Shown one piece after another: positions 6,518 through 50,950 of a DNA stretch of 64,000 nucleotides. The notes under the pieces were generated by a model. The model was given only the letters and a program-made list of their open reading frames with translations. It was not told the DNA's origin and ran no database searches. The translations under genes and the position numbers were made by a program. Origin of the DNA: an uncultured Gammaproteobacteria bacterium (GTDB lineage Bacteria > Patescibacteriota > Microgenomatia > 0-14-0-10-38-17). How positions within the stretch are numbered: position 1 is the first letter of the stretch; each line of letters starts with the position of its first letter. The stretch spans positions 182,610 through 246,609 of the forward strand of contig CAYGEH010000001.1 of assembly GCA_964348895.1 (NCBI GenBank). The letters are read 5' to 3'.

Positions 6518-6787
6518 TTATCTTTTTAGCTCCAATTTTTTAATTAGTTCTTGATAGCGTTTTTGATACCGACCGGCTAAATAATTTAATAAACGGCGTC
6601 TTTTAGAGACCATTGACAGCAGTCCTCGTCGAGAGTGAATGTCTTTTTTGTGACTTTTGAGATGTTCTGCTAACTTCTCAATTTTAGTTGTCAATAAAGC
6701 AACCTGAATTTCTGGAGACCCAGTATCCCCTTGTTCTGTGGCAAACTTTTTAATAATTTTTTCTTTTTCCTCTTTACGTAAAGACAT
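6518..6787 (-). CDS. rpsO: 30S ribosomal protein S15
   Basis: 89 aa; [15 protein letters not shown] motif. Confidence 0.9.
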
Positions 6788-6990
6788 TTTTTCTTTTAAT
6801 TAATTATTTTTTTAAATTATACAATACACATGATACACGTTGTTTATTCTAACACTTTCGTCAGAAAAAAAACAAGAGGCATTTATTTAATCAAAACCCT
6901 TATTTTTGCTAGCAAGACTCATTCCCTAAAGAACCTGCTTTCTCTTGGTCTTTTAGATTTGGTAACAGAAAAAAAGTCTCATCTTAAGAA

Positions 6991-7818
6991 TTAATCCCCA
7001 GCGCTCCCCCGATAGATTTTTGGCCTAGCAAATTCTGTTGTTTTTTCTGGAGAAGTTTGCTCGGAAAAATTATTTTTTAACAGCTGTCCTCCGGCTCGTA
7101 AACAAAACGCCGCTGCTTCGAAAGTGTCTGGGCCAAGACCAGAAACAGAAAAGGAGTTAGTGGCCGCTTGAAGACCTAAAAGTAAATTACCTGCGGACTC
7201 TCCCTCGATTGGTAGGGATAGCCCTTCAATAAGCCCAGCAACTATTTCTGAGAAAGATGAAGCCTCAAGATCAATCAGCTTAATTTGCCCAAAAAACTCA
7301 CTCTCCCTATTAAGGTTAATATTAACTAAGCTAAGAGAATCTAATGTTTTTTTAACACCCAAAGATTTAATTGTCTGGTCTAGTTCTTTTTGAGAAGAAA
7401 AACCAAAAACAATCGCATTTTTAAGACTTCCACTACCTTTCTTAAAAGAAACCAAGCGATCGTTAATTGAGGGAGCTTCTGGTTTTGGCTCTATAATTAA
7501 ACTTACTCTTTCTTGTTCTCGATCGTCCCAGTTAATTTTTTCAATATTAGCCAAAGAATAATTGATGTTAATAATAAAACTTCTTCCTTCAAGTTGGTTG
7601 GTGATTTTCTCAACTCCAACCACCTGACTGAATTCGACTGTTAGGGGCCGAGAACATACCACTTGAGTTTTTTTCCCGCTTTTATTTAATGAAGCAGAGA
7701 GGGCGGTGGCGGCAGCAACTTGATCAAGGCGAGGCTTTTCTGGCAGCAAAATTTTAAGATCATCTGCTTGGCCCAACCAGGCGTTAAGATCGGAAAGGGG
7801 ATAGCTTTTTTTGTTCAT
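6991..7818 (-). CDS. Hypothetical protein, possibly a degenerate DHH-family (NrnA-like) protein lacking catalytic motifs
   Basis: Sits between infB and rpsO, where NrnA/DHH or rbfA/truB occur in other bacteria. The N-terminal LDQVAAATALSASLNKSGKKTQVV resembles the DHH motif-I region, but the Asp/His residues are absent. Confidence 0.35.
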   Translation of the reverse strand: MNKKSYPLSDLNAWLGQADDLKILLPEKPRLDQVAAATALSASLNKSGKKTQVVCSRPLTVEFSQVVGVEKITNQLEGRSFIININYSLANIEKINWDDREQERVSLIIEPKPEAPSINDRLVSFKKGSGSLKNAIVFGFSSQKELDQTIKSLGVKKTLDSLSLVNINLNRESEFFGQIKLIDLEASSFSEIVAGLIEGLSLPIEGESAGNLLLGLQAATNSFSVSGLGPDTFEAAAFCLRAGGQLLKNNFSEQTSPEKTTEFARPKIYRGSAGD

Positions 7819-7836
7819 TAATATAATGAATTATTT

Positions 7837-9270
7837 TTAAGACTGCCTGTATTTTATCACATCGCCAATAGAAAAATCAACCGCAGGAAAAAACATTGCC
7901 CCAAACTCTCGACCCTTTTCCACTCGACTAACTTTTTCTTTTCCTCGCTGAAGAGAAACTATTTTTGTTTTTTTCTCTGTTTTGTCTTGCTTAACAATAA
8001 AAACTTCCGTTTGGTCTTTTATTTCCCCAGAAAGAACCTTGGCTCCAGCAATTCTTCCTTCAGGAAGAGAGAAATTAGCCACTATTTCTGCTTCACCAAA
8101 AATACTCTTTTCTTCTTCGATATTTTTTAGGGCTTTTATTCTCTCTTCAATATGTTGAAGTAACTGATAAATTATTAGTTCCGTTTTAATAAAAATTCCC
8201 TCTATTTTTGCTAGTTTTATTGCTGAAGAAGAGGGTTGAACATTAAAACCAATTATTTCAGCCTGACTTAAAGAAGCTAAAAAAACATCAGACTCGTTTA
8301 TCTGCCCAACGCCAGTTTCAATAATTACCAGGTCTTCTTTTGGTAAAGAATTAAGTAGGGCCTCTAGTGTCCCTTGGGTGTCGGCTTTCACTATTAGTTT
8401 CATTAAAGCCTTTCTTTGTTCGTTGGTTTTTTTATCTTCTTGGTCTTTGCTGTGAGGTTGCTTAACTTCAAGACTAGAATCATAAACTATACTGCCAGCC
8501 GAGGGTTGACTGGTAAAGCCTAAAATTGCCACTGGCTGACTAATCAAGGCTTCTTTGATCGATCTACCTAAGTCGTCAAAAATAGCCTTAACCTTAACCT
8601 TTTCTCCTTCAGAAGCAATTTCCTGACCAACCAAAAGCTTGCCCTGTCTAACAATCACATTTACCAGGGTTCCTTTTTGACGATCAACATAAGACTCAAC
8701 CACCACTCCCTTAAATGGTGCCTCTGGAAGAAAAGCAAGTTCTTCCATTTGAGCTAAAAGAACAATCATTTCCAGTAACTCATCAATTCCTTGCCCAGTC
8801 TTAGCTGAAACTGAAACAAGAACCGTTTCACCGCCTCGATCTTCCGTTACCACCCCAAATTGAGTCAACTTATTTTTAATTTCTTCTTCATTGGCGTTAG
8901 GTAAGTCAATTTTATTTAAAGCAATTAAAAAGGGCACTCCAGCTTTTTTAATGTGATCTAAGCATTCTTGAGTTTGGGGTTTAATTCCTTCATCAGCGGC
9001 AATCACCAAAACCACTAAGTCTGTGGCCATAGCTCCCCGTCCTCTCATTTTTTCAAAAACTTTGTGACCAGGGGTATCAACAAAAGTAATTTTTTGCTTA
9101 CCAATAACAACCTGATAAGCGCTAATGTGCTGGGTAATGCCACCCGCTTCTCCTTTTTGAAGATGGCTTTGCCGGATTCGATCAAGAAGTGAGGTTTTGC
9201 CGTGATCAATATGCCCCATTAAGGCAACAACGGGAGGACGAATGGGGTCTTGAGTTTGATTGGTCTTCAT
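7837..9270 (-). CDS. infB: Translation initiation factor IF-2 (short form)
   Basis: G-domain GHIDHGKTSLLD, DTPGH, NKIDL; 477 aa lacking a long N-terminal extension. Confidence 0.9.
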   Translation of the reverse strand: MKTNQTQDPIRPPVVALMGHIDHGKTSLLDRIRQSHLQKGEAGGITQHISAYQVVIGKQKITFVDTPGHKVFEKMRGRGAMATDLVVLVIAADEGIKPQTQECLDHIKKAGVPFLIALNKIDLPNANEEEIKNKLTQFGVVTEDRGGETVLVSVSAKTGQGIDELLEMIVLLAQMEELAFLPEAPFKGVVVESYVDRQKGTLVNVIVRQGKLLVGQEIASEGEKVKVKAIFDDLGRSIKEALISQPVAILGFTSQPSAGSIVYDSSLEVKQPHSKDQEDKKTNEQRKALMKLIVKADTQGTLEALLNSLPKEDLVIIETGVGQINESDVFLASLSQAEIIGFNVQPSSSAIKLAKIEGIFIKTELIIYQLLQHIEERIKALKNIEEEKSIFGEAEIVANFSLPEGRIAGAKVLSGEIKDQTEVFIVKQDKTEKKTKIVSLQRGKEKVSRVEKGREFGAMFFPAVDFSIGDVIKYRQS

Positions 9271-12053: not shown

Positions 12054-13964
12054 ATGACAGGAAATAACCTTAGCAACAAAATTATTGGTATTGATTTGGG
12101 GACCACTAACTCCTGTATTGCTGTGATGGAGGGGGGTAAACCTACCATCATCCCCACCGAAGAGGGCGGTCGCCTTATCCCATCAATAGTTGAACCAACC
12201 AAGGGTTTAGTTGGCGAACCAGCCAAAAGACAAATGATTATTAACCCCAAAAATACTTTTTTCTCTGTCAAAAGATTAATGGGGAAGCGCTATGATGACG
12301 AATCGGTTCAACAAGACAAGAAGTGGTTGCCTTATAAGGTCAGTCAGGGCCAAAATAATTTAGCGGTGGTAGAAACTCAAGACGGCAAACAGCTTACCCC
12401 CCAAGAAGTCTCAGCTAAAATTTTACAAAAAGCTAAGGCTGACGCGGAAAGCTATTTAGGCGAGAAAGTAGAACAGGCCGTTATTACTGTCCCAGCCTAT
12501 TTTGACGACTCTCAGCGTCAAGCCACCAAAGAAGCAGGCGAAATCGCTGGCTTAAAAGTGGCTCGGATTATTAATGAACCAACCGCCTCTGCTCTAGCCT
12601 ATGGCTTAGACAAAAAAAAGGCAGAAAAAATAGCTGTTTTTGATTTAGGGGGAGGAACCTTTGATATTTCCATTTTAGAAATTAGTGACGGAGTCTATGA
12701 AGTTCTCTCGACTAATGGCGACACCCATTTGGGCGGCGACGACTGGAATCAGAAAATTATAGAATATGTTTTGGCTGAATTTAAGAAAGAACAGGGAATT
12801 GATTTATCAGGAGACTCTCAGGCAATGCAAAGAATTAAAGATGCGGCTGAAAAAGCTAAGATTGAATTATCTTCCTCGCAAAACACTGAAATTAACCTCC
12901 CCTTCATTACTCAAGGCGAATCTGGCCCCCTACACTTGACTATTTCTTTAACCAGAGCAAAGCTAGAGCAAATTACTAGTTCTCTTTTAGACCGACTCTT
13001 GCCGCCAGTTAAGTCGGCCCTTAAAGACGCCAAGTTGACCACCAAAGACATTAATGAGGTCTTGCTGGTTGGGGGTCAAACCAGAATGCCCAAAATACAG
13101 CAAATCGTTAAAGATTTTTTTGCTAAAGAGCCAAATAAATCTGTCAATCCCGATGAAGTAGTTGCGCTAGGAGCAGCTGTTCAGGGTGGAGTTTTGGCTG
13201 GTGAAGTTAAAGATGTTGTTCTTTTAGACGTTACCCCCCTAACTTTAGGCTTGGAAACATTAGGTCGGGTGGCAACTCCCTTAATTGAAAGAAACACCAC
13301 TATTCCTGTTAGCAAATCTCAGGTTTTTTCGACTGCTGGTGATAATCAAACTCAAGTAGAAATTCACATCGTTCAAGGCGAGCGAAGCATGGCGCCCGAC
13401 AATAAATCCCTGGGCCGATTCACACTAGACGGCATTCCTCCAGCTCCCCGAGGTGTTCCCCAAATTGAAGTTGCTTTTGACATTGATTCAAACGGTATTT
13501 TAACCGTAACTGCCAAAGATAAGGCGACCGGGAAGTCTCAAAATATCATCATTAAGGGATCAACGGGTTTATCAGAAGATGAGGTTGAAAGAATGACTCA
13601 AGAGGCTAAAGCCAACGAAGAAGAAGACCAAAAAAAGAAAGCTTTAGTTGAGTCCCGAAATAAGGCAGATAGTTTAGTTTTTAGTGTTGAGGGCAGCTTA
13701 AAAGATTTAGGCGATAAAATAGGTAAAGAGGACAAAGAAAAACTAGAAAAACAAATTAAGGCCGTTAGAGACTTACTAGCTAAAGACAATCTTCTCGACA
13801 AAGAAGATTTAGACAGAGAAACTAACCAGTTAACAGAACTTTGGCAGAGCTTAGGTCAAAAAATTCACCAACCAAGCCAAGAAGAAAAAGAAGCTTCGCC
13901 AAAAGATAAGCCCGAGAAAAAGAACGATCAAAATGAAGCCGAAGAAGGCGAAGTAGTTAATTAA
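12054..13964 (+). CDS. dnaK: Chaperone DnaK (Hsp70)
   Basis: [33 protein letters not shown]; 636 aa. Confidence 0.95.
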
Positions 13965-14084
13965 AAAATTCTTCTCCTTAAATCAAATAGATTTGTTAAT
14001 TTAAGACTCCCTTTTTTCTTAAAAACAGTTTTTCTTGCTAAAATAGCAAAGAAGTAATTAAATCAGTTTTAATTTATTTAATTT

Positions 14085-14915
14085 ATGAGTAAAGATTACT
14101 ATCAAGTTTTAGGCCTAACAAAAAGCGCCAATCAAGACGAAATTAAAAAAGCCTATCGTAAACTAGCTCTTCAGTGGCATCCTGATAAAAATAAATCAGT
14201 TGAGGCTGAAAAAAAGTTTAAGGAAATTAATCAAGCCTACGAAGTTTTGTCTGATTCCCAAAAAAGGCAAGCCTACGATCAGTACGGAGAAGCGGCCTTT
14301 AGTGGCGGATCGCCCTTTGGGGGCACAACTGGTCGTCGGGGACCATTTACTTATACCTATTCTTGGGGAGGAAACGAAGACTCTTTTGCTGGTTTTTCTA
14401 ATCCTTTTGATATTTTTGAATCATTTTTCGGCAATCGCTCCCCTTTTGGCCGAAGAGAGCAAGTTCCTCACTATCAAATTAGCCTTAGTCTAAAAGAAGC
14501 TGTTGTTGGTACAGAAAAAGAGGTAGAAGTTAATGGTCAAAAAAGAAAGATAAAAATCCCCGCTGGAAGCGAAACTGGCTCTCAAATCAAATTCAAAGAT
14601 TTTTATTTAATCGTTCAAGTTTTGCCTGACGACAATTTTTCTCGCCAAAACGATGATTTAGTTACCAGTAAGAAAATAAGCTTTAAGACTGCTGTTCTGG
14701 GAGGGACTGTTGCTGTCACTAATCTTAACGGAGAAGAAATTAAATTCCGAATTCGACCAGGAACTGATTCGGGAAAAATCATTCGCTTGAGGGGCTATGG
14801 CGTTCCTCGTCGCTTTAGTTCAGGCCGAGGCGACCTTTATCTTCGTCTAGAAATTGCTGTTCCCAATAAGCTTTCCCGAAAACAAAAAGAACAAATTAAG
14901 AATTTAGACTTCTAG
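14085..14915 (+). CDS. J-domain co-chaperone (DnaJ/CbpA-like, no zinc-finger domain)
   Basis: J domain DYYQVLGL...HPDKN, G/F-rich linker, C-terminal substrate-binding domains; no CxxCxGxG repeats. Confidence 0.8.
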
Positions 14916-15601
14916 TTTTCGAAGTAGGGAAGAAAAGAAACTATTCTCGATTTCTCTCTTAGATTTTGATACCAGCCTTGAAATTTTTCGTTCATTTTGC
15001 TTTCTCTGATTGCCTGAAAAGCCTGATTGGCTCGCTCTTCTTCGCCTTCGGCTGTAATTAACGCCTCGTTATCAACTAAATACTGATCAATTTCTTCTTG
15101 GCTAATCTCAAGATCAACAGACAATAGTTCTTCCAAAACTAGCTGGGTTTCAATATCCTTTCTTAGTCGTTCCATTGTAAAGCCTCGAAGAGCCAGGGCC
15201 TCCTCTAAAGAATTCTCTGCCCCCAAATTTTCTTCTATTTGTTTTACTTCTTGGTCAATTCTTTCCTGGCTAATCTTTACTCCTTCTCTTTTTGCCTCTT
15301 GTTTGATTAATTTTTCATCAATTAGTTGTCCCAAAACTTGGCTTCCGTGCTGTTTTTCAAGAGCTTGATTAAATTGCCAGCGCCAAATTGGTTGACCGCC
15401 AACTGTAGCCACAACGAACCAGTGGCGCTTAAAATAAATTAGACCAAGAAGAAAAATAACCGCCACAATGGCAATGGTTGTTTTACGAGAAAGACGAAGG
15501 GGTTGGCTTATTTTTTTAATAACCTCTTTTACTCCTGCCATTTTCAGACAAGCAGTTCTTTTTTCTCCCCCCACACTGGTAACAGTTTTCTTTTTTATCA
15601 T
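14912..15601 (-). CDS. Membrane-anchored SurA-N/PpiD-like periplasmic chaperone domain protein (no PPIase domain)
   Basis: N-terminal TM anchor followed by a helical domain resembling the SurA N-terminal / PpiD chaperone domain. Confidence 0.4.
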
Positions 15602-15705: not shown

Positions 15706-18312
15706 TTAGGGGGCAATTTCCTGCCAAATCTGATGAGAAGAGCGAAAAAATTCAGGGGCATTAAAAAGATGTCGAGGATTAAAAATAAATAACTCGGCTG
15801 GATTAAAAGTATTGCCACCCTCAAGATCTTTATTTAAAGAAAAGGCAGTTCCGGAAAAGAAAACGCCTTCGCCAACAAACTTTGACTCGGCATCATTTTT
15901 AACAGTGGTAATTTGGCCATCAACGAGAAAGACTCCTTGAACTTGAGGAGTGGTTGAAGCAAGATTCATGGTGCCAACATCAATCGTCAAATCTCCGCTA
16001 ACAATCACCGCCAAGAAACCACTTGGCCCAACAGTAATTTGGTCATTGATATTTAGATCGCCAGCCACAAAAATAATTTTTTTGACATCTCCAATTGCCC
16101 AACCATTAATATTCATCATTCCTCCATCTCCCGAAGAATAAACCACAATATTTCTGTCAAGTGAAACTGGGTTTGTTAGAATATTTTCTTCTCGAAAGGC
16201 TATTTCCTCGTTTGCTTCGTTAACGTCTAGAAGAGAAATAAAGTGAGAATAGTGATAGCGATTTCTTAGCGCACTTAGGCTTCCCCTGATCTGCCAGTTA
16301 GTGTTTCCTTGAGACACTTGGGCGCCGTTAAAATTATCCTGACTAGTGGGAAGATGACTCCGAGCTGAAACAAGCCCCGATTGTCCCCACACTCCACCTA
16401 AAGAGAAGAATCTGTTCGTAGCAAGCCGAGAGATCCGACTGGCAACATTACCCCCGTGAACATTTCCGCCCTGAGTTTGAAACCAGGGGGCAGGAGGTCT
16501 AACGGTAACAAGAATAGAATCATTGTTGGTGCAGTCACGCCAGGTATCACAAGTAAACCCACTTATGGGAGAAGCTCCCCAAGGACAGGCGGGATTACCA
16601 GTACAAATTTCGTTTAAACTTCTGGCATTACAAATAACATGATATGTGCCTGGTTGTAAAAAGGTATGTGTCACGCAACCATTGTTCGGAGGGGTTATGG
16701 GTTCTATAGGGCGAAGCCTTGTCCAAGAATTTGCGTTGTCAAGGGGAGACTCAGAAAAAGCAGAGAAAATTCCGCCACCAAGGTCGGCATTTTCTGTTGT
16801 AACACAGTATTGGGCTGGTTCACCAGAAACAGCCACCAGATTACCAGTAATAATACAAGTTGGGGGAGGGGTAATATTAAAGGAGCGTAATTCGCTATCA
16901 GTGCAACCATCATTATTACAGGCCCTAACAAACCACCAGTATACACCATTGTCGCGAACAGTTCGAGAAATACTTAAAACATTACTTCTGGTGATCGTGT
17001 CTGAACCGGAATATCGCATTTGATCGCTGTAAATTTCGTCACGAACCAGGGTTTCCTCTCCCCCCACTATTGTTCTTTCTGGCTCTTCCCAGTGAGCAGG
17101 TGTTTTGCTTTCAGCCTGGGCACGAGTTAGGTTTTTTACCCGACTAACAAAAAGCCCATATCTTCTAGTGTTAAGCGATATACCATAGCCTCCCCTGGCA
17201 CACTGATACCCCCAACAAAATCTATCGTTATACCAAATATATCTACCCGAACTACAACCATAATGTCTTTGATCGACCCTGTCACAAGTGGGTTCTCCCC
17301 CTTGAAATTTCCACCAAGAAAAATCAAGAGACCCGCCAGTACTAATCCTTGTTCCTTCGGCGGGAAGGTTTAAAGAAGGTCTAGCTGGAGCGCAAGAACC
17401 ACAACCAAGATCCCACCCTACATTAAAACAGGGAGTACAATTACCATGTGGAAACATTCCCCATCTTAACCTCTCACAGGGACCAGCCCCACACCCACCA
17501 TACCCCCAACACTCCCGATAACCAGTAGGACCGCAAGTTGAACCAGAATCAGAGGTACCACCGGGTGGCGTTGGCATAACAATTGGAATTTCTCCGCCGG
17601 TTGTTCCGCAAGGATTCACCGTCCACGAAAACCCATCAAAAATACCTAGGCAAAGATCGTTGCTACAAGAGGGGCCAGGCGAACGAAAATCACCCCAACG
17701 AACAACCGCAACATTTGTCCCAGAACAACCCCCGTTCCCAGTACAAGACCCCCTTACTCCACTCAGTCTAGCTCCAGCTACAATACTACCGCTCACCTGA
17801 CAACATGTTTTGTACCAACCACCAGAAGCACAACCAGTGTCGTTACAAATACCAGCGCAAATACTTTCTCCTGCTGGCTGAGAACCGACACAAGGACCAC
17901 AGCGATCAGCCGCCGAACAATTTTGCTGTTGCCACTCCCAAGCACAAACAACACCTATGATTCCACCAGTAACCGAATAAATATGACGGTCGACAACACA
18001 TTGGGCGCTGTGTGCATAGGTCCAAGTCTGCCAACCGTTGGGACAAGAAACCCCTGGTCGACAGCAAACATTGTTTGGTTGAGAAGAAGAACAAAGCGGA
18101 GTTGAACAAACAACACCAAGAGCACAATCTTGGTTTGCTTCCGGGACGGAACAACACTCATAGTCAAGAACTTCGCAAATTCCGTTATTACAACCTCTGT
18201 ATAGTTGACAACCTGTTTGAGAAAAAAGATCTTTTGGTGAAAACAAAAATAATCCCCCTGTTAACAGTAATAAAAAAAATAGAACCAGTCTTTTTTTCAT
18301 TTTGCTTGTCAA
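15706..18312 (-). CDS. Large secreted Cys/Gly/Trp-rich protein (868 aa) with a central Fn3/PKD-like region and a C-terminal beta-rich domain; unknown function
   Basis: Signal peptide MTSKMKKRLVLFFLLLLTGGLFLF. More than 60 Cys in the first ~500 aa (CxxC, CGxC, GCGxGxC patterns). Fn3-like strand NGVYWWFVRACNNDGCTDS. Locally elevated GC. Start codon abuts the upstream ORF stop. Confidence 0.6.
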   Translation of the reverse strand: MTSKMKKRLVLFFLLLLTGGLFLFSPKDLFSQTGCQLYRGCNNGICEVLDYECCSVPEANQDCALGVVCSTPLCSSSQPNNVCCRPGVSCPNGWQTWTYAHSAQCVVDRHIYSVTGGIIGVVCAWEWQQQNCSAADRCGPCVGSQPAGESICAGICNDTGCASGGWYKTCCQVSGSIVAGARLSGVRGSCTGNGGCSGTNVAVVRWGDFRSPGPSCSNDLCLGIFDGFSWTVNPCGTTGGEIPIVMPTPPGGTSDSGSTCGPTGYRECWGYGGCGAGPCERLRWGMFPHGNCTPCFNVGWDLGCGSCAPARPSLNLPAEGTRISTGGSLDFSWWKFQGGEPTCDRVDQRHYGCSSGRYIWYNDRFCWGYQCARGGYGISLNTRRYGLFVSRVKNLTRAQAESKTPAHWEEPERTIVGGEETLVRDEIYSDQMRYSGSDTITRSNVLSISRTVRDNGVYWWFVRACNNDGCTDSELRSFNITPPPTCIITGNLVAVSGEPAQYCVTTENADLGGGIFSAFSESPLDNANSWTRLRPIEPITPPNNGCVTHTFLQPGTYHVICNARSLNEICTGNPACPWGASPISGFTCDTWRDCTNNDSILVTVRPPAPWFQTQGGNVHGGNVASRISRLATNRFFSLGGVWGQSGLVSARSHLPTSQDNFNGAQVSQGNTNWQIRGSLSALRNRYHYSHFISLLDVNEANEEIAFREENILTNPVSLDRNIVVYSSGDGGMMNINGWAIGDVKKIIFVAGDLNINDQITVGPSGFLAVIVSGDLTIDVGTMNLASTTPQVQGVFLVDGQITTVKNDAESKFVGEGVFFSGTAFSLNKDLEGGNTFNPAELFIFNPRHLFNAPEFFRSSHQIWQEIAP

Positions 18313-18846
18313 CTAATTGGCTAAAAAATCTTTCGGTTCAAGTTTTATAATTTCCTTTTCAGCATCAAAAACAGAAACTATCAGATTAACTCCAAAGTCG
18401 GCAATTTCTCCTGATTGAGTCTTTAAAATTTCTTCTTCTGCCCAAACATTAACCAGCCTCTGTTCATCTCTTCCTGTTAAAACATAATTAACACTAAATC
18501 CGCTATTAAAATCGGTTAAAATTAAACTTGGAAATTGCCCTCCACTGGTCATATTAATATAGTTCATTCTACTGTTTTTAACCTGACCAGCAAAAACTGC
18601 CAAAATTGGTGTGTTTTCTGGAACTTGGTAGCCAATTCCCAAATAGCTTCCGTCAACTTCAACTATTTTTCCCCTGGAACAATATTCTTGAGGTACTGGA
18701 CAATGAAGAAACTTTTTTATTGTGCTTCTTTCAATAAAAAGCTCGTCTTCTCGAGCGGGACGAAAAATAAAAAAATAATAAGAGGCTAAAAAACCAATAG
18801 TAGCCAACAACAAAATAAGGAAAAACAAAACTAAAGGCCGTTTCAC
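18313..18846 (-). CDS. Small N-terminally membrane-anchored protein, unknown function
   Basis: 177 aa; TM helix LVLFFLILLLATIGFLASYYFFIF; translationally coupled to the downstream Cys-rich protein gene. Confidence 0.5.
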   Translation of the reverse strand: MKRPLVLFFLILLLATIGFLASYYFFIFRPAREDELFIERSTIKKFLHCPVPQEYCSRGKIVEVDGSYLGIGYQVPENTPILAVFAGQVKNSRMNYINMTSGGQFPSLILTDFNSGFSVNYVLTGRDEQRLVNVWAEEEILKTQSGEIADFGVNLIVSVFDAEKEIIKLEPKDFLAN

Positions 18847-18890
18847 AGCTTTTTTAGTTTAGGAAAAAAAAACCTCTAAGTCAAGAGCTG

Positions 18891-20816
18891 TTATTGGTCT
18901 CTATCTAAACTAAAAACCAAAGCCTGATCAACTCTCAAAATACGCTCTAGAGAAAAACTATGTGGTCCCATCAGACTTGATGCCGTAAAAATAATCTGAC
19001 TTTCACTGTTTATGGAAATTCCTCTGCTAAACAAGCCTTCCTTTTCGATTTCAGTAAAGATAATTTCGTCAAAACTAACCTGCCTTGCTCCCCAATCTCC
19101 TAGATTAATCTCTTGCGCTGACTTAATTAAAAAACTTAAGCCATGATTAGCCCCCCTCAAATGCTTTTCTAGCAAATTCTCTGGTGTATCTATTGATATC
19201 GCGTAAAAACCTCTCTGTGGAGACCAAATAGCTCGAGTTTGCTCGATAAATGGAGAGCGAAATTTCGCCGTTGACGGTAACCCCCCAATTTCAACCCAAT
19301 AAAATGTTTTGTCAGAGCCTTCTTCCCATATTTTTATTCTTTCTCCTCTTGGGTCAAAATTAAAAGCCATCCGCCACTGGTCTTTTTCGATTGCCTCCGA
19401 CGTGTTAGTTTTTTCTAAAAGTTTTCTTCTAACTTCACTAGCCAAAGCTAACCCCTGTCCAGACGAAGTCCCAGTTTCATCATCAAATTCGAACAAGTAA
19501 CCAGCATATTCTCCTTCTTGCAGGTTGTAGGGGTTGTCCTTCTCTGCTCGGTAAATAACCTTCTCCTCTTCCCAACCAAGAATTAACCCCTCTACGCTTG
19601 GAGCCTTGGCCAATAGCTCTTCTGGAGAAAAAATTCTTTCCCATTTCCATTCGCCTTGTTCTATGTTGTATTTTGCTTGAGCAAGGTTTTTAAAATCTCC
19701 TGTTTCCTGATCCTGACTTTTTAAGATAAAGCTGGTTCTACCCTCTTCGTCGACTGTTTCCTCAAAATCCCAAACCGCAGGCATTTCCTCAAAGTGGGGG
19801 ACTATTGGGTTTTTGATCATCTCGCCATTTATTTGATCAACAAAAACCATTCCTACTTCTTTTCTAATTTCAGCAATTAGAGCTTCTCCTTCAATTTGGT
19901 TGAGGTTTAGTCGTGTTTCTTTCTGACCCTCGTTAAGAACGATCTGCTGGCTTTGAGAGTCAAATTGATAGCCATTGGCGACTAAAAGATTTTCCAGTGA
20001 AAGCGCATTTCTGTTTTCTGGATCAGCTGGAAAATGAGTGGGCAAAAGAGCTAAATAATGGCGAGGAACGCCACTTTCCCCTGAAGTCCGAAGATAGTCA
20101 GTAAAGGCAACTAAGACAGAGTTTAATTCTCCTCCGGGGGTATTTTTGTCAATGGTGATTTCCGTTGACGGCTTGGGTTCATTAAGCAAGCCCACCACGG
20201 TCATTTGGGTTCCTGAACGCAATAAAAAGCTTCGAGGAGTAATCCATTCTTTGAGCTCTGAAGCTTCTTGTTCTGCTTCAGAAGGAACCTCACTTAGAGT
20301 TAGTCGAGCCAAGGACAGTTCGGCCAATTGGGGAAAAATTACTTCTCCGCCTTGTTTTCCAGGAGCGAAAAATCCTTCCTCGCCTCGATAAGCTCCCAGA
20401 GAAACCAAATATTTTAATGGGTCAACTGATTTTTCTGGTAGGTGGGTAAATTTAATTGTTTCTCCCCAAGACTTGCTAACATAGTCTAAACCAAATTCAA
20501 CTAGTGATGTTTCCGCTTGGCCTTCTCCCACTCTTTCTCCTCCGCCGACGCCAACAAAAGCATTTCTAAGATATTCTTCAGTGATAGTTGTCCCTAAGAT
20601 TCCAATTACTTCTCTGGTAGGAGCTGGCTCAATGGTTGGAATCTTGGTAGGGGTAGGTTCTGGTGAAGCAATTACAGAGGTCTTGTCGACCTGTTCTGGC
20701 TGTCGTCCGCAACTGGAAGAAAGGGCGCCAACCACAATGGTCCCAGCAGCTCCCAAAAGGAACTCTCTTCTGGTCATTACTGGCCCTCTATTTAATACTT
20801 CCTTAGAGTTGGTCAT
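18891..20816 (-). CDS. Large secreted lipoprotein with twin-arginine (Tat) signal peptide, unknown function
   Basis: MTRREFLLGAAGTIVVGALSSSCGRQ combines the Tat motif RREFLL with a lipobox LSSSC; 641 aa; first gene of the three-gene operon. Confidence 0.55.
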   Translation of the reverse strand: MTNSKEVLNRGPVMTRREFLLGAAGTIVVGALSSSCGRQPEQVDKTSVIASPEPTPTKIPTIEPAPTREVIGILGTTITEEYLRNAFVGVGGGERVGEGQAETSLVEFGLDYVSKSWGETIKFTHLPEKSVDPLKYLVSLGAYRGEEGFFAPGKQGGEVIFPQLAELSLARLTLSEVPSEAEQEASELKEWITPRSFLLRSGTQMTVVGLLNEPKPSTEITIDKNTPGGELNSVLVAFTDYLRTSGESGVPRHYLALLPTHFPADPENRNALSLENLLVANGYQFDSQSQQIVLNEGQKETRLNLNQIEGEALIAEIRKEVGMVFVDQINGEMIKNPIVPHFEEMPAVWDFEETVDEEGRTSFILKSQDQETGDFKNLAQAKYNIEQGEWKWERIFSPEELLAKAPSVEGLILGWEEEKVIYRAEKDNPYNLQEGEYAGYLFEFDDETGTSSGQGLALASEVRRKLLEKTNTSEAIEKDQWRMAFNFDPRGERIKIWEEGSDKTFYWVEIGGLPSTAKFRSPFIEQTRAIWSPQRGFYAISIDTPENLLEKHLRGANHGLSFLIKSAQEINLGDWGARQVSFDEIIFTEIEKEGLFSRGISINSESQIIFTASSLMGPHSFSLERILRVDQALVFSLDRDQ

Positions 20817-23730: not shown

Positions 23731-24875
23731 GACAAAATTTCACTCTCAAAAGAGAATTTTAATTTATTGGTCGCTCTTTTTCTCTCTTTGGCCAAAATAA
23801 TCATTTTTTCAACAAGTTCTGATCGCTTTATTCCGCTTGCCTCCCAAAGATAGAAAGCCAAAGAACCCGGAATGGTGTTTATTTCGTTAGGATAAATTTT
23901 CCCAGTCTTTTTTTGATAAAGAAAGTCCACTCTGGCCATACCCCAACCGACTATTCTTGGAAAAATAATCTGGGTCATCTGTCTGATTTCCTCGGATATT
24001 TTCTCTGGAATGGGAGCCGGAATAATTCGAGCAAGGCCAGCCATTCCCTTGCTTTTCCCTCCTTTTAAATACTTTTCCTTAAAGGATAGAAATTTATCTT
24101 CAGAAATTGGCTGTTCACAAACAGAAACAATTAGCCTGTTTCCACCCAGCGCCGCACAATTAATATCAACTGCTCCTTCAATGCTTTTTTCAACTAAAAT
24201 TTTAAAATCATAAAGCAGGGCTAAATTAATAGCTTTTGTCAGTTCATTTTTATTATCTACCTTGCTAATACCGATACTAGAGCCACCTCTTGCCGGTTTA
24301 ATAAAAACGGGGTATTTAATTTTCTTCTCAATCCGGCTAATAATTACTTTGGGTTTATTTTTAAATTCATAGCCATAAAAACTCAAATAAGGAGCAACTC
24401 TAAAGCCACACCTTACAAGAAGATCTTTTGTTAAAACCTTATCCATACTTAATCCACTACCCAAAACATCACTTCCAGTATAAGGAATATCAAAAAAATC
24501 AAGAAGGCCCTGTAGTTCACCATTTTCACCACTTCCACCATGCGTCAAAAGCAGTGCCGCACCTAAATCAACATGTTTTTTTAACAAACCTTGCTTAAAC
24601 TCAATTCCCCCCTTAACAAAATTAACATTAATTTTTTGCCTAAGCACTTTTTTAATAAACTTTTGCGGTTCATCCCCTTGAAGAAGTGGACACAGAAAAC
24701 TGTTGTTTTGTTGATCTAAATAGATTAGATAACATTTAAATTTTTGTTGATTAATCCAACTCCACACTTGAAAAGCGGTTACAATTGAAACCTCATGTTC
24801 GGAAGATTTGCCTCCAAAAACCACGGCGAGATTAAGTTGTTTGCCTTTCATCACTTTTTTGATTTTAACAGACAC
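23721..24875 (-). CDS. ddl: D-alanine--D-alanine ligase-like ATP-grasp enzyme
   Basis: N-terminal VVFGGKSSEHEVS, ATP-grasp core, C-terminal EINTIPG; 384 aa. Confidence 0.75.
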   Translation of the reverse strand: MSVKIKKVMKGKQLNLAVVFGGKSSEHEVSIVTAFQVWSWINQQKFKCYLIYLDQQNNSFLCPLLQGDEPQKFIKKVLRQKINVNFVKGGIEFKQGLLKKHVDLGAALLLTHGGSGENGELQGLLDFFDIPYTGSDVLGSGLSMDKVLTKDLLVRCGFRVAPYLSFYGYEFKNKPKVIISRIEKKIKYPVFIKPARGGSSIGISKVDNKNELTKAINLALLYDFKILVEKSIEGAVDINCAALGGNRLIVSVCEQPISEDKFLSFKEKYLKGGKSKGMAGLARIIPAPIPEKISEEIRQMTQIIFPRIVGWGMARVDFLYQKKTGKIYPNEINTIPGSLAFYLWEASGIKRSELVEKMIILAKERKRATNKLKFSFESEILSQK

Positions 24876-25168
24876 TGAGGGTGGGGACTAGTCTTAACTC
24901 CAGTCGCCTCACAAAACGCGGGTCGTGGCTTAACACCATAGTCGCGACATTTACTTTGGCCAAAATCAAAGCGATCACAATTATAAACACCAACCACTTG
25001 CTCATGCCCAAGAGAATCTAAAACCAATTCCTGACCCGTTCGTTGAATAAACGGAAAGGCTTTTAATTCTTTTCGAAGATTAATTGGATCGTTAAGTTCG
25101 GAGGTAATTTTAAAATCAAAACAGCAACTTCTAGAACAACTTTCACAAAGATTCATGAAAAAAAACAA
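24851..25168 (-). CDS. YkgJ-family (CxxCxxCC) putative zinc/iron-chelating protein
   Basis: N-terminal CESCSRSCC motif; 105 aa; overlaps the ddl start by 25 nt. Confidence 0.5.
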   Translation of the reverse strand: MFFFMNLCESCSRSCCFDFKITSELNDPINLRKELKAFPFIQRTGQELVLDSLGHEQVVGVYNCDRFDFGQSKCRDYGVKPRPAFCEATGVKTSPHPQCLLKSKK

Positions 25169-37067: not shown

Positions 37068-38525
37068 ATGAGGCTTAAACCCGCCAAAACCATTCCCAGT
37101 ATTATTGGCCTTTTGCTTTTAACCGTTCTTGTCTTTGGCGGTGTTTATCTTACTCAAAGACTAGGCAGAACCACCACTCAAATTGCTGCCTCGCGCCAAC
37201 CCTTATCAGTCAGGGTGGCCAATATTACTGATCGAGCCGCTGTCGTTTACTGGCTAACAGAAGAAGAAACAGAGGGAAGTATTAAGCTTAACGATAAAAT
37301 TTATCTTGATAATCGAGACAGGGTTTCTTCTCAGGCAAAAAAACGCTTTACTCATTATGTCGCCATTGATGATCTTCTTCCAGGCGAAACCTATCATTTT
37401 GCCATTATCAGCCAAGGGCAAATTCAACAAAAAGACAGCTTTCAGTTTACCACTGCCCAAGCCTTGATTGGTCCTCCTGCAGAAGTTGCCGATTTGGCTT
37501 TTGGTATTATTTTGGACAATCAACAAAATCAGCCCTTGGCTGACACTCTTGTTACTCTTTCTCTGCCTGGAGCCACTAATCTGGCTAGCCTAACTGACGA
37601 CAATGGTTTTTGGTCTATTCCCTTGAGCACTGCTTATCAGAAAGATTTATCTAGGCCAATTAGTTATGATCGAGAAAAAGAGGTTCTTGAAATCCTAGTT
37701 GAATCTCGTCCTGGATTAAGCTCAACCGTTATCACTAATACTGGTAATGATCATCCAGTTCCTCCGATAATCATTGGAAAGTCATATGATTTTTCCCAAA
37801 ATCCTCCCACCCCAAGACAGCAACCAGAAGATTTTGATTGGACTAACCCTCTAGAAACAGTTGAAGAAATAAACAACTCTTCTTTTTTTCTTCCCCAAGA
37901 GCAAATTGACCCAAAAGAAGCTCAAGCTGTAATCAATATCAACGATCCCCAAGAGGGAGAAACTGTTTTTACCGCTAAACCAGAATTTTCTGGACGAGGT
38001 CCGGCTAATCAAACTATTAAAGTTACTTTAGAATCGCCTAAAAAGTTTGAGGAGGAGATTGTTGTTTCTGCCTTTGGCTCGTGGCAATGGAGTCCACCAG
38101 AACACCTTACCCCCGGAAGACACACTCTCACTGTTGAGTATCACGACGAAAACAACATTCTTCATGTTGTCAGTAGAACCTTTATAGTTCAAGCCTCTAG
38201 TATTTCTCCTTCGCCAACACCAATAGTGCCTCTACCAACCATCCCCCCTCAAGTTACCCCAACTCCTACTCCAGTTCGAACTACTCCAACCCCTACTCCA
38301 GTTCGCACTACCCCAACTCCTACTCCAGTTCGCACTACCCCAACTCCTACTCCAGTTCGAACTACTCCAACCCCTACCCCTTTGCCAACAATAACACCAA
38401 TAATTAAAGAAGCCACTGCTCCAGCCGAAATAGTTTCTGGCAACTTGACGCCCTTGGTTATTCTTGCTATTCTGGGCTTAGGCTTAATTTATTTTGCTTT
38501 TGTTGTTCATCAAAAAAAACACTAA
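37068..38525 (+). CDS. Surface protein with Fn3-like domain, 4x PTPTPVRTT repeat linker and C-terminal TM anchor with basic tail
   Basis: Signal anchor; Fn3-like VANITDRAAVVYW...YHFAI; tandem 27-nt repeats; C-terminus TPLVILAILGLGLIYFAFVVHQKKH. Confidence 0.55.
   Translation: MRLKPAKTIPSIIGLLLLTVLVFGGVYLTQRLGRTTTQIAASRQPLSVRVANITDRAAVVYWLTEEETEGSIKLNDKIYLDNRDRVSSQAKKRFTHYVAIDDLLPGETYHFAIISQGQIQQKDSFQFTTAQALIGPPAEVADLAFGIILDNQQNQPLADTLVTLSLPGATNLASLTDDNGFWSIPLSTAYQKDLSRPISYDREKEVLEILVESRPGLSSTVITNTGNDHPVPPIIIGKSYDFSQNPPTPRQQPEDFDWTNPLETVEEINNSSFFLPQEQIDPKEAQAVININDPQEGETVFTAKPEFSGRGPANQTIKVTLESPKKFEEEIVVSAFGSWQWSPPEHLTPGRHTLTVEYHDENNILHVVSRTFIVQASSISPSPTPIVPLPTIPPQVTPTPTPVRTTPTPTPVRTTPTPTPVRTTPTPTPVRTTPTPTPLPTITPIIKEATAPAEIVSGNLTPLVILAILGLGLIYFAFVVHQKKH
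38259..38366 (+). repeat. Perfect 27-bp tandem repeat, 4 copies, encoding PTPTPVRTT
   Basis: ccaactcctactccagttcgaactact repeated four times with only synonymous variation. Confidence 0.8.
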
Positions 38526-39928
38526 TGCTTCCCGCTTCAAATAAACCATCACCGCCACCTCTTCCTCCAGAAAACTACAAGAATCAAATTGCCGTTAACT
38601 TTAGCTCTATTGACAATAATCAAGTCAAAACCCAACCCTCTCAAGGCTCCAAACAAAAAACAAAAAAAATATTTATAATCATCGCTGCTATTTTTTTGGC
38701 ACTAATAGCGCTAATGGGAGCTCTTTTTTTCATTCGAGAAAGACAAGACATCAGAGAAGAAGCAGCAACAACTGGACGCTTAATTTGTATGCCTGTTGAC
38801 AACAATGGAAATATCACTAATGAAAAATATCAACATGATCGAATGTTGGTTAAAAACGAAACAAATAGAGACATCCAAATCAAAATTCAAACTAATCTTT
38901 GTCCATATCAAGGACAAAATCCTCAAATCGGATATCGCTGCGATGACTATGTTGGCGCTTTCCCTTATATTGTTCGGGCGGGAACTCAGGTAATTTTACC
39001 CAATCCCGATACCGAATCATGGTTGTCACAGGGCTGGGTTGGTTGTCAAAAAATTGGTCAAATGGACATTCAAAAAGATAAAGATCACTACATTCACATT
39101 GGTGTTGACCCCAACACTATTCCAGACTGCTTTAACACTGTTGACAATCGCGTTTGGGAAGGGGGAATTGCTTTTACTATCAAGGCTAATTCTGCCTCCT
39201 GTTGTCCAAAAATGGAAGTAGCCGTCTCCCCTAATAATCCTAGACCAGGACAAGAGGTTGTTGTCAGAGCCTCTAGTCCATCTCCCCTAGTTTGTGCTGA
39301 ACTAGTTAATTTTTCTGGCTTGGCCGGAAAACCAACTTGGATTGGCATGGACGGAAATTATAACTGGTCCTGGAGGGCAACCGCTGGAAACACCCCCGGA
39401 CAATACAGTCTTACCTTTAGGGGCAATACTAGGGATTCTGGTCAAGGAGTCTGTCCGGGTCGGGCGATCGGTGACTGGTGTCAAGTAACTGGCAACTTTG
39501 GTGTTGGCGTTGCCCCAACTCCAACCCCAACTCCAACTCCCACTCCGACAATCTTTCCGACTCCCACTCCAACCCCCACCCCAACACCTCCCCAATACGA
39601 CTACAACTGCCATACTATTAATGTTTACGATGCTAATCGAAATTTAATTAATCGTAACGACTTAAAAAACCTAAAAGCAGGAGACTTAATTTACATCGGA
39701 GTGGTCGCCAACAGTGGCCATCCAATCCACCAAATTAATAAAGCCAGGATTCGTGTTAATCGTAATTATTGGCTGGCTCAAGATGAAACTAGCGAAAAAT
39801 TAACTACCAGCGCTAATCATTTAACTGAATTTGTTAAAAGCTACATTATTCCTGAAGGATTATTGAATTTTAAGATTGAGGCAGAGGTTCACCTTAACGC
39901 TCCCAGTCCAGTCGGAGGCTGGCGTTAG
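38525..39928 (+). CDS. Membrane-anchored extracellular Cys-containing protein with a (TP)n linker and a C-terminal beta-rich domain
   Basis: Pro-rich cytoplasmic N-terminus (PSPPPLPPENY), TM helix, Cys-containing ectodomain, [12 protein letters not shown] linker; its ATG overlaps the upstream stop (TAATG). Confidence 0.5.
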   Translation: MLPASNKPSPPPLPPENYKNQIAVNFSSIDNNQVKTQPSQGSKQKTKKIFIIIAAIFLALIALMGALFFIRERQDIREEAATTGRLICMPVDNNGNITNEKYQHDRMLVKNETNRDIQIKIQTNLCPYQGQNPQIGYRCDDYVGAFPYIVRAGTQVILPNPDTESWLSQGWVGCQKIGQMDIQKDKDHYIHIGVDPNTIPDCFNTVDNRVWEGGIAFTIKANSASCCPKMEVAVSPNNPRPGQEVVVRASSPSPLVCAELVNFSGLAGKPTWIGMDGNYNWSWRATAGNTPGQYSLTFRGNTRDSGQGVCPGRAIGDWCQVTGNFGVGVAPTPTPTPTPTPTIFPTPTPTPTPTPPQYDYNCHTINVYDANRNLINRNDLKNLKAGDLIYIGVVANSGHPIHQINKARIRVNRNYWLAQDETSEKLTTSANHLTEFVKSYIIPEGLLNFKIEAEVHLNAPSPVGGWR

Positions 39929-39940
39929 TTAAAAATTATT

Positions 39941-40414
39941 ATGACATCTAAAAAAACCCTAAAGACCATTGTTATTATTGTTGCCAGCCTCTTGTTGTTA
40001 GGACTAACTGTTTTCTTGGCTAGTCAAATTTATCAAACTCGCCAAGAACGTCTGGCTCCCACTGAACCAAGGGCGGTCAGCCCCACTTGCACTCTGGCTT
40101 TTACTATTTTGCCACCAACCCCAACCCCCACTCCGACACCTCCTCCAATCGTAACGCCTACTCCTACTCCAACCCCAACTCCCACTCCGACACCCTCTCC
40201 GACTCCGACTCCAACCCCAACCCCCACTCCAACACCTCCTCCAATCGTGACGCCTACTCCTACTCTTACCCCAATCCCAACACCCTCCCCAATCGTAACA
40301 CCTCCTCCTACTCCACCAACCACTCTGCCAGAAGCTGGAAGCATTTTGCCAACCATTGGAGTAGCCTTGGGCGGATTATTTTTGGGAATACTGGGACTCC
40401 TCCTCGTTTTTTAA
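39941..40414 (+). CDS. Small Thr/Pro-rich surface protein with C-terminal LPEAG + hydrophobic segment (sortase-signal-like)
   Basis: N-terminal signal anchor, about 90 aa of TP repeats, then [29 protein letters not shown] at the C-terminus. Confidence 0.5.
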
Positions 40415-44248: not shown

Positions 44249-44833
44249 TCAGGCAATAGGTGTTTGGGTAAGCTTTTTCAAGGCTTCTTCTATGGAAGAA
44301 ATCACCACAATATCTTTTCGTTTGTTTTCTGCTTTTTGCCTCCAACCAGGAATCAACCAGAAAAGTTTTGCTTTAGTTGAAACAGCTAATTTTTCCAATA
44401 CTTCTAGGTCATCGTCAATAAAAACATCAAGCCCTTCTGTGTTTATCGCCAAAGATTTAAACTGAATCGGATCTTGGTCTTCTTTATTAATAACAATTTG
44501 GCTAAATAAGTTGGTTAAATTGTTGCACTCCAACCAGTCTAGGGTTAATTGTTTTAAAAAGCTAAATCTGGCAGTAATTAAAAAAAGCTGAAAATCCCCA
44601 AGATTAGACCAGGTCTTGATTTTATTCTTATCAGAAAAAGATATTCTTCTTAAATAATTAATCGTTTTTAAAACTAGCTTCTCCCACCTATTTTTAGGAT
44701 AGAAATGGCTCATTCCTCCATTCGCAATTAATCCACTTTCTTTTTGTTTCCTTATCTTAAACCAAAAATAATCCAAACAGTGTCGTGCTAAAACTCCGTC
44801 TAAATCAAAACCAACTTTTATCGTTGCTGTCAT
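44249..44833 (-). CDS. HAD-superfamily hydrolase (nucleotidase/phosphatase-like)
   Basis: N-terminal GFDLDGVLA (DxDGV HAD motif I); 194 aa. Confidence 0.5.
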   Translation of the reverse strand: MTATIKVGFDLDGVLARHCLDYFWFKIRKQKESGLIANGGMSHFYPKNRWEKLVLKTINYLRRISFSDKNKIKTWSNLGDFQLFLITARFSFLKQLTLDWLECNNLTNLFSQIVINKEDQDPIQFKSLAINTEGLDVFIDDDLEVLEKLAVSTKAKLFWLIPGWRQKAENKRKDIVVISSIEEALKKLTQTPIA

Positions 44834-44905
44834 TTTCTGGTAGTCAGTTTAACATACCAACAGCACCTTTTTTAATCAAGCCAAATCAATTACAATAAAG
44901 CCTAA

Positions 44906-46942: not shown

Positions 46943-47042
46943 ACTAAGACAATAAGAAAGTTTATAAAAACAATATATTTTTAAAAAAACCTAAAAATGT
47001 TCGCTTTTAACATCACGCCTTGGAGTTTTAATTAGTTCTTTT

Positions 47043-48851: not shown

Positions 48852-49008
48852 ATTGTTTTTATTAAACTCCACCACTAAAAGAATCTTTCAATTTTTTTGT
48901 TTCCTTCTTGTTAATTTAATAACTAAATAACCTCCTGTTCTTTTTCTTGTTTTTCTTGCTAATGTTTTTTGAGTTTCTTTTGTTGATAAGCTATCATAAC
49001 AACTAGCA

Positions 49009-50004: not shown

Positions 50005-50114
50005 GCGCTTCCTTCAAAAAAATAAAAACCCCTAGTTGTTTTGTTTGAGCTAAGACAAAACCAAAAGAATTTGTGATTTAAGTTCTTTTGTTTTAAAATC
50101 AAAAAATTGTTTTT

Positions 50115-50927: not shown

Positions 50928-50950
50928 AAGTTTTTTGTAAATCAAAAAAA

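Follow-up and report, generated by a model that had tools for sequence, protein, structure and literature searches.

Non-catalytic LytM domains, as in EnvC, DipM, SpoIIQ and Csd1/2, serve as protein-protein adaptors. These degenerate LytM (dLytM) proteins, together with NlpD, are conserved housekeeping components, which regulate wall hydrolases or build a sporulation channel. Lipoproteins exported by the twin-arginine translocation (Tat) pathway are common in Streptomyces and haloarchaea. Here, we describe a locus in which putative proteins of both kinds are encoded next to a Cys-rich secreted protein. It lies in a 64-kb stretch of the contig CAYGEH010000001.1 (hereafter, the window), whose gene content, with an hrcA-grpE-dnaK-dnaJ operon, nusA-infB and the murein genes murJ, ddl, Mur ligase and mraY, is that of a small-genome chromosome of the Patescibacteria, also called the Candidate Phyla Radiation (CPR). 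Positions 15706-20816 of the window carry three co-directional open reading frames (ORFs) on the minus strand in the order A, B, and C, of which C encodes a protein of 868 residues (C868).

The closest described counterparts of protein C are the large Cys-rich extracellular proteins of Peribacteria, a CPR lineage, which were proposed to serve in attachment and vary between strains (PMC4736985). The disulfide machinery MdbA/VKOR has been found enriched in CPR (bioRxiv 335083). Judged by their description, the Peribacteria proteins resemble C in the signal peptide, the high Cys content, the large size and the missing functional annotation, as well as in the strain variation and the proposed attachment. 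That description is generic, defining no family, domain or partner genes, whereas here a YKTCC module, Fn3/Ig-like spacers and a beta-helix domain can be resolved in C, together with two LytM-fold partner genes. The class of Cys-rich CPR surface proteins is known but uncharacterised, and what is new is the specific architecture and the unexpected LytM-fold partners. The words 'unusual for a minimal genome' in the original prediction, made from the sequence of the stretch, are an overstatement, since large, strain-variable extracellular proteins of this kind are a described CPR trait (PMC4736985). A description of the A-B-C cassette was not found in the literature searched, which covered DUF7305, DUF3494 in CPR and LytM in Patescibacteria.

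The reading that we favour, still tentatively, is that C is an adhesin-like protein whose N-terminal module would be docked or matured by its cognate LytM-like partners A and B, the three forming a native CPR envelope module. An adhesin or host-interaction role had already been suggested for the large protein in the original prediction, and we keep it as the most likely one. The features of the cassette are as follows.

20816-18891, minus strand: gene A, an ORF of 641 residues (public call of 628 residues from Met14)
20709-20777, minus strand: predicted twin-arginine signal peptide and lipobox of A, residues 14-36, MTRREFLLGAAGTIVVGALSSSC
19632-20591, minus strand: conserved N-domain of A with an orphan fold, residues ~76-395, with the invariant FTDY.R...PRHY..P.HFPADP.N
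18894-19631, minus strand: hypervariable C-terminal half of A, the last ~150 residues of which are predicted to be a non-catalytic LytM/M23-fold domain
18846-18313, minus strand: gene B, 177 residues, with an N-terminal membrane anchor and a predicted degenerate LytM domain
18312-15706, minus strand: gene C, 868 residues from TTG, a predicted Sec-exported, disulfide-rich multidomain surface protein
18220-18312, minus strand: predicted Sec-type signal peptide of C, residues 1-31, with KKR followed by a hydrophobic run (helix at residues 3-23 in the AlphaFold2 (AF2) model)
17593-18210, minus strand: N-terminal Cys-rich GGWYKTCC module of C, residues 35-240, with the core YKTCC at residues 167-171
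17389-17538, minus strand: second Cys-knot segment of C, residues 259-308, with 10 Cys
16495-17388, minus strand: Fn3-like (residues ~309-482) and PKD/Ig-like (residues ~483-606) spacers of C, sub-threshold by sequence and moderate by model
15709-16494, minus strand: predicted C-terminal beta-helix domain of C, residues ~607-868, from PWFQTxGGxVH to the terminal W-Q-E-I-A-P-COOH

Protein architecture of the cassette

The TTG start codon of gene C directly follows the TAG stop codon of gene B, confirming the tight junction noticed in the original prediction, and an ATG located 12 nt (four codons) later is the start of the public call of 864 residues. Proteins A, B, and C occur without any change on 12 public contigs, which stem from several samples. 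Scans of all three proteins against Pfam, NCBIfam, PHROGs and PADLOC gave nothing above threshold.

Protein B has a single domain behind an N-terminal membrane anchor. The profile built from five B proteins matches the M23 peptidase 5kqb (E 3.9e-5), followed by zoocin A and LytM, and one B member matches PF01551 at 4.5e-7. The zinc ligands are lost in B, where Tyr and Gly replace the His and Asp of HxxxD (Y...G) and HxH has become N.I. From its sequence, B is predicted to be a membrane-anchored, degenerate and non-catalytic LytM protein. The LytM-like domains of A and B have the M23 beta-sheet fold and lack the catalytic zinc site (HxxxD, HxH), and the structural neighbours of this domain are EnvC, DipM, SpoIIQ and Csd1/2. 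Both proteins thereby share with the dLytM adaptors (EnvC, NlpD, DipM, SpoIIQ and Csd1/Csd2) the M23 fold, the loss of the zinc ligands and the predicted tethering to the membrane as a lipoprotein or by a transmembrane segment. The adaptors act via protein contacts, as we propose for A and B, and paired LytM domains are also found in Csd1-Csd2. Unlike those housekeeping proteins, A and B are rare and hypervariable, and their linkage is with a Cys-rich secreted protein, not with an amidase; A additionally has a Tat signal and an orphan domain of 320 residues.

Protein A is composed of a signal, a Pro/Thr-rich linker, the conserved domain of ~320 residues and a hypervariable C-terminal half; all invariant columns of the family are found within residues 83-392. 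The AF2 model of A has a mean pLDDT (predicted local distance difference test) of 77.7. We identified 34 homologues among 5.8 billion proteins, none of them with a functional name, and a profile search of species-representative genome contigs, a set outside which the window's own genome falls, revealed four A loci. Pfam and NCBIfam scans of A returned no family above threshold and only a sub-threshold match to TAT_signal (PF10518, 12.8 bits with a cut-off of 22.7), for which precomputed matches exist in four A homologues.

The twin-arginine motif with a lipobox, as reported for the first gene in the original prediction, remains the probable reading after closer inspection. The N-terminus of A, TRREFLLGAAGTIVVGALSSSC, contains T-R-R-E-F-L-L, in agreement with the Tat consensus S/T-R-R-x-F-L-K, followed by a hydrophobic stretch and Cys36. 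The motif [ST]RRxF[LV] with a later Cys is found in 29 of the 34 family members, and one more has GRREFL (of the remainder, three come from truncated gene calls); this near-universal occurrence argues that the twin-arginine signal is a selected family trait and not a product of chance. The lipobox region of the window protein reads A-L-S-S-S-C, with Ser instead of Leu at position -3, and most homologues have the canonical LLSSC or LAGC. In the related locus L002, an LGT gene adjoins the cassette. The assignment of A as a putative Tat-signal lipoprotein of a rare Patescibacteria family holds. Calling such a protein unusual for a minimal genome went too far, because TatA/TatC were reported in Microgenomatia, Paceibacteria, and Saccharimonadia (PMC9166423). 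A resembles other Tat-exported lipoproteins in the twin-arginine motif followed by a putative lipobox Cys, and differs from them in its cargo domain, an orphan without recognisable cofactor ligands, and in that Tat machinery was not found in the sequence searched. Further twin-arginine proteins are encoded around the cassette in L007, L008, and L036 (among them FSRREILRA, VSRRSFLQG, IGRRDFLKK, ITRRDFLKR, and ISRRGLLKN), where putative Tat substrates appear to be concentrated.

The C-terminal half of many A homologues contains the LytM-like motif G-T-x-[IV]-x-A-P-F-x-G. No His or Asp is invariant in this half across the family, which suggests that the LytM-like domain of A is non-catalytic as well. 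We consider this domain and B to be probable paralogues. The B-family profile matches the C-terminal region of one A homologue, and in L015 the A C-terminal region (6773-7133) and the B gene (7506-7866) show 83% DNA identity over 362 nt with an ordinary, transition-rich mismatch spectrum. The likeness in L015 points to a recent duplication or gene conversion between the LytM-like partners. The hhalign comparison of the C-terminal domain of the window A with the B family was not significant, and the link between A and B rests on the fold and on L015.

Full-length homologues of C are limited to five among the 5.8 billion proteins; these share 19 invariant Cys columns. The GGWYKTCC module is conserved across cassettes with 20 invariant alignment columns and is connected to the second Cys-knot segment by a short Pro/Thr/Gly-rich linker. 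Protein C contains 48 Cys, all located within residues 35-594, which amounts to 5.5% overall and 8.4% in residues 32-600, compared with 0.67% in the other 55 ORFs of the window. Gly (11.9% versus 6.2%) and Trp (2.9% versus 1.4%) are both about twice the background of the other ORFs. The Cys-, Gly- and Trp-richness of the original prediction is thus evident, whereas the dense packing of CxxC motifs is not, as C contains only three of them; the peptide CGPTGYREC...GCGSC corresponds to residues 260-307. We found no internal repeats in C, and a sequence search of the PDB with C868 gave no match. The predicted features of C bear out a secreted, Cys-rich protein with an Fn3/PKD-like segment, itself sub-threshold by sequence and moderate by model, and a beta-rich C-terminus.

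Conservation and block replacement of the cassette

The three genes had been taken for an operon, and a comparison with related loci supported that they form a functional unit, with the same order recurring in many Patescibacteria loci. The order A-B-C (or B-A-C, or A-C) was found in every relative locus of sufficient length (L001, L002/3, L004, L005, L008, L009, L015, and L016). A metagenome scan with the YKTCC module identified 21 loci, which include near-duplicates and represent roughly a dozen distinct cassettes; upstream sequence was present in 19 of them. The gene directly upstream of C has an A-family profile match or an A-type C-terminal motif in all 19 (the motif alone in four), and a B-like gene is inserted between A and C in about 14, the others having the order B-A-C or A-C. 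Two proteins examined that have the C-terminal domain without the YKTCC module (L011 and L012) lack A and B neighbours, suggesting that the partnership of A and B is with the N-terminal module of C and not with its beta-helix.

In L004 and L005, the cassette resides beside HAD-like, DUF2298, UvrD, FemAB, glutamate racemase, and RecF-type genes. The counterparts of these genes in the window (44249-52021) are located ~24 kb away from the cassette, indicating that its chromosomal position is not conserved. Next to the C gene of L002 we observed a short reverse transcriptase (RVT_1, 257 residues, 13297-14070), and near that of L015 an Avd-like four-helix protein (PF22296, 10478-10852). A target of a diversity-generating retroelement was ruled out, with no template/variable repeat in L002, no adenine bias in the L015 repeat and nothing of the sort in the window.

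Variation within the cassette is seen between L004 and L005, which belong to closely related genomes. Their DNA is 94% and 98% identical on the two sides of a 3.2-kb segment without DNA similarity, which extends from approximately codon 416 of A through B to approximately codon 650 of C. The N-domains of A are 94% identical between the two loci, and the last 265 residues of C are identical. Among nine cassettes, the types of the A C-half, B and the C N-module group together (L004 with the window, and L009 and L016 with L005), whatever the relatedness of the A N-domain and of the beta-helix. The phage tail-fibre tip and assembly-chaperone cassettes, as well as cohesin-dockerin pairs, follow a similar logic, in which a variable binding module is exchanged with its cognate partner gene and the conserved portion of the structural protein is retained. 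The likeness is one of logic only and without homology; in the cassette, it is the N-terminal module that varies, and LytM-fold membrane proteins take the place of the partners.

In the mechanism we propose, C would leave the cell via Sec and then fold oxidatively on the outside into a multidomain protein stabilised by disulfides. A would be exported folded by Tat and anchored by its lipid, and B would be held by a single transmembrane helix, so that each could present a catalytically dead LytM-fold domain on the outer side of the membrane. We infer that the N-terminal module of C is physically bound by these LytM-like domains, which would dock it, act as a dedicated factor for its maturation, or do both, and that C is located at the surface in an adhesive or host-interaction role. 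The Fn3/Ig-like spacers would give reach, and the beta-helix would provide the conserved function, binding or wall attachment. Cognate binding would lead to the A C-half, B and the N-terminal part of C being inherited and exchanged between strains as one block, with the A N-domain and the beta-helix of C staying with the genome and supplying the homology for recombination.

Several observations speak against this proposal. B is absent in some loci (L027, L033, and L022/23), and no adhesin family was matched by sequence in the Pfam, NCBIfam and PDB searches. AF2 gave a pLDDT below 50 for the Cys-rich part of C, an unusable model of its fold and any binding surface, and C could have either end facing the cell. 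We found no significant tatA, tatB or tatC in the 64-kb window or in 354 kb of related loci using approximate E. coli and B. subtilis queries. The co-variation of the A C-half, B and the C N-module is not strict, because the N-module of the window C shares ~40% identity with those of L001 and L015, despite A C-halves and B proteins without detectable similarity. The block co-inheritance could also merely reflect contiguous DNA between two conserved recombination anchors.

Among the other explanations, a peptidoglycan-remodelling or cell-division module would make A and B LytM regulators (like EnvC, NlpD, and DipM) of a wall hydrolase and C a wall effector or binder. In E. coli, Tat-exported amidases work together with LytM factors, which is in line with such a module, as are the LytM folds of A and B and the murein genes in the neighbourhood (Mur ligase, Ddl, MurJ, and MraY in the window; FemAB, glutamate racemase, and polysaccharide deacetylase in L004; a LysM-M23 protein in L001). 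However, murein genes are common neighbours in small genomes, and neither sequence nor fold revealed a hydrolase, amidase or wall-binding domain in C, just as the N-domain of A gave no match to amidase folds. Unlike division factors, the cassette is rare (34 A clusters and five full-length C clusters), hypervariable and swapped between near-identical genomes. We therefore regard a murein function as unlikely.

Less likely still is a strain-specific recognition or antagonism locus, in which the variable region of C would be a polymorphic recognition determinant or toxin, comparable to TraA of Myxococcus or polymorphic toxins, and A and B would be partner or protection proteins. The replacement of one variable block between otherwise near-identical genomes would suit such a locus, and paralogous copies of A and B within single loci (L008 and L009) would do so too. 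CPR Cys-rich proteins are, moreover, weakly similar to Cys-rich repeat proteins of Myxococcus (PMC4736985). On the other hand, no toxin, immunity or PA14-type domain was detected with Pfam and NCBIfam and nothing in PADLOC or PHROGs, the variable part is N-terminal and internal instead of being a C-terminal toxin tip, and A and B differ from typical immunity proteins in being large and extracytoplasmic.

A predicted C-terminal beta-helix domain of CPR secreted proteins

The C-terminal domain of ~260 residues, which the reading of C as an adhesin-like protein leaves with a conserved function, is modelled as a right-handed beta-helix, based on a shallow alignment (10 matches in a word-indexed homologue search with the domain alignment). 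In the model, the domain shows the beta-helix fold of IBP-1; the best structural match is the ice-binding/DUF3494 fold, followed by ComZ (also tapirin). An exhaustive profile search returned 2750 representatives of 50%-identity clusters at E<=1e-3 and 1805 at 1e-10, some of them matched via the Fn3 part alone. We examined 156 sequences, mostly the top matches of this search, and found the domain in 152 of them, at the extreme C-terminus in 148, with an Ala-Pro end in 99 and Cys-rich passengers in 90. As judged from these matches, the domain probably ends hundreds to thousands of CPR secreted proteins.

Fold and sequence diverge in what they say about the relatives of this domain. The domain profile had no sequence match among PDB chains, C868 had none to PF11999 (DUF3494) in Pfam at E<=1, and the identity of the domain to ice-binding proteins is 11-13%. 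DUF7305 (PF23981, gathering threshold of 27 bits) is matched by the relative P0193 at 29.5 bits, which passes, by P0081, P0045, and P0189 at 26.4, 22.3, and 16.9 bits, respectively, and not by C868. The CPR domain is thus set apart from the ice-binding DUF3494 fold and the ComZ/DUF7305 beta-solenoid by the absence of a significant sequence match for C868, by its own motifs PWWQTxxGDVH and terminal W-x-E-[VLI]-A-P, and by its position at the extreme C-terminus behind variable passengers without a pilin leader.

The C-terminal fold might suggest that C sits at the tip of a pilus, like ComZ or tapirin, or that it binds ice, but either is improbable. The prepilin leader (G|F-T-L-x-E) is present in none of the 152 domain-bearing relatives, the inspected N-termini of which look like Sec signal peptides, and pilus genes are adjacent in no locus examined; on these two grounds, the pilin identity prompted by the ComZ and tapirin fold matches was ruled out. 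The low identity to ice-binding proteins and the lack of any match to DUF3494 or a PDB chain likewise disfavour ice binding.

The adhesin-like reading can be taken a step further, although we hold this extension doubtful. The beta-helix domain with its W-x-E-[VLI]-A-P end would then be a CPR-wide surface-display or sorting module, and the LytM pair of A and B with the YKTCC module an orthogonal receptor-ligand docking system, in which block swapping would retune the display of attachment proteins and perhaps the host range. SLH domains, LPXTG anchors, and the C-terminal domain of the type IX secretion system would be the functional counterparts of such a display module of ultra-small monoderms, and the docking would resemble cohesin-dockerin pairs in its logic, if true.

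Composition and genomic setting

The operon had been described as GC-richer than its surroundings and possibly acquired horizontally. Sliding GC content is locally raised to 0.44-0.49 at 16-18 kb, which is the Cys/Gly/Ser/Pro-rich coding stretch of C. By gene, B is GC-poor (0.341) and A (0.424) is close to dnaK (0.418), and the Cys-rich part of C alone reaches 0.47-0.51, so that the description applies to this part and not to the operon as a whole. The excess is confined to codon positions 1 and 2 of the Cys/Gly-rich part, with a GC content at the second codon position of 0.525 for gene C. At the third codon position (GC3), C (0.321) and A (0.343) are within one standard deviation of the window mean (0.320, standard deviation 0.033), and B (0.242) is low, not high. 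In the ranking of the 56 window ORFs by codon-usage divergence, C is 56th, i.e., the lowest, A 50th, and B 13th. The GC excess of C is therefore best explained as an effect of amino acid composition, and since GC3 and synonymous codon usage are at the norm of the window, the compositional case for a recent horizontal transfer fails.

A recently acquired island coding for a foreign adhesin or toxin, for which the locally raised GC and the differing genomic positions of the cassette among related genomes could be cited, is very improbable in the face of the typical GC3 of C and A, the synonymous usage of C, the closest of the 56 ORFs to the window, the GC excess at codon position 2, the absence of adjoining integrase, transposase or other mobility genes in the window, and the fact that all named relatives, whether of C or of its C-terminal domain, are Patescibacteria, Beckwithbacteria or Magasanikbacteria. 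The adhesin-like reading takes the cassette as native to the genome and not recently imported.

The named relatives of A are mostly Patescibacteria as well, the exceptions being two contigs labelled Desulfotomaculum and Gammaproteobacteria. An A-family gene in L006 (8001-9869), 71% identical to the window A over the N-domain, has neither B nor C beside it, and its gene call has no Tat signal. It is surrounded by ABC transporter genes for sugars and amino acids, together with a GH2 beta-galactosidase and a lactate permease, a setting atypical for CPR that may stem from another host lineage or from an assembly error.

In the window, the cassette is flanked by an alpha/beta-hydrolase gene and a SurA_N-like gene. 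The latter (14912-15601, minus strand) encodes a membrane-anchored SurA_N/PrsA-like chaperone without a PPIase domain. It follows C in the same orientation at a distance of 104 nt, and a search for a terminator-like site between the two genes found none. The other cassettes lack this chaperone gene. P0065, a distant protein of 1332 residues sharing the C-terminal domain of C, has a sub-threshold SurA_N_3 match at its N-terminus.

Elsewhere in the window, an ORF of 359 residues with 10 Cys (60918-61997, minus strand) opens with a Cys-rich repeat of the type CGDGTVESNEECE and closes with two Asp-rich dockerin-/EF-hand-like motifs, DVNKDGRIEGGELYD and DLNDDGECNAIDFSILL. Its product may also take part in surface display. 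Three consecutive ORFs on the plus strand (37068-40414) contain long Pro/Thr repeat linkers, with a C-terminal hydrophobic anchor in two of the three and 11 Cys in the middle one, and look like a second envelope-protein cluster. The sole other strongly Cys-enriched ORF of the window encodes 105 residues with 8 Cys (7.6%) at 24851-25168 on the minus strand; it immediately precedes ddl in the same orientation and overlaps its start.

The attachment of CPR/Patescibacteria to other cells and their dependence on them are largely unknown, and most of their surface proteins are unannotated. The locus defines a widespread, unnamed C-terminal domain of CPR secreted proteins, predicted to be a beta-helix, and a three-gene cassette that combines a Cys-rich module with two putatively inactive LytM-fold membrane proteins, one of them a predicted Tat lipoprotein. 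The parts of the cassette that putatively interact are replaced between near-identical genomes. If the partners bind, the cassette would make the display of surface proteins and their variation between strains open to experiment in ultra-small bacteria, and the repertoire of degenerate LytM domains would extend beyond the control of cell-wall hydrolases.

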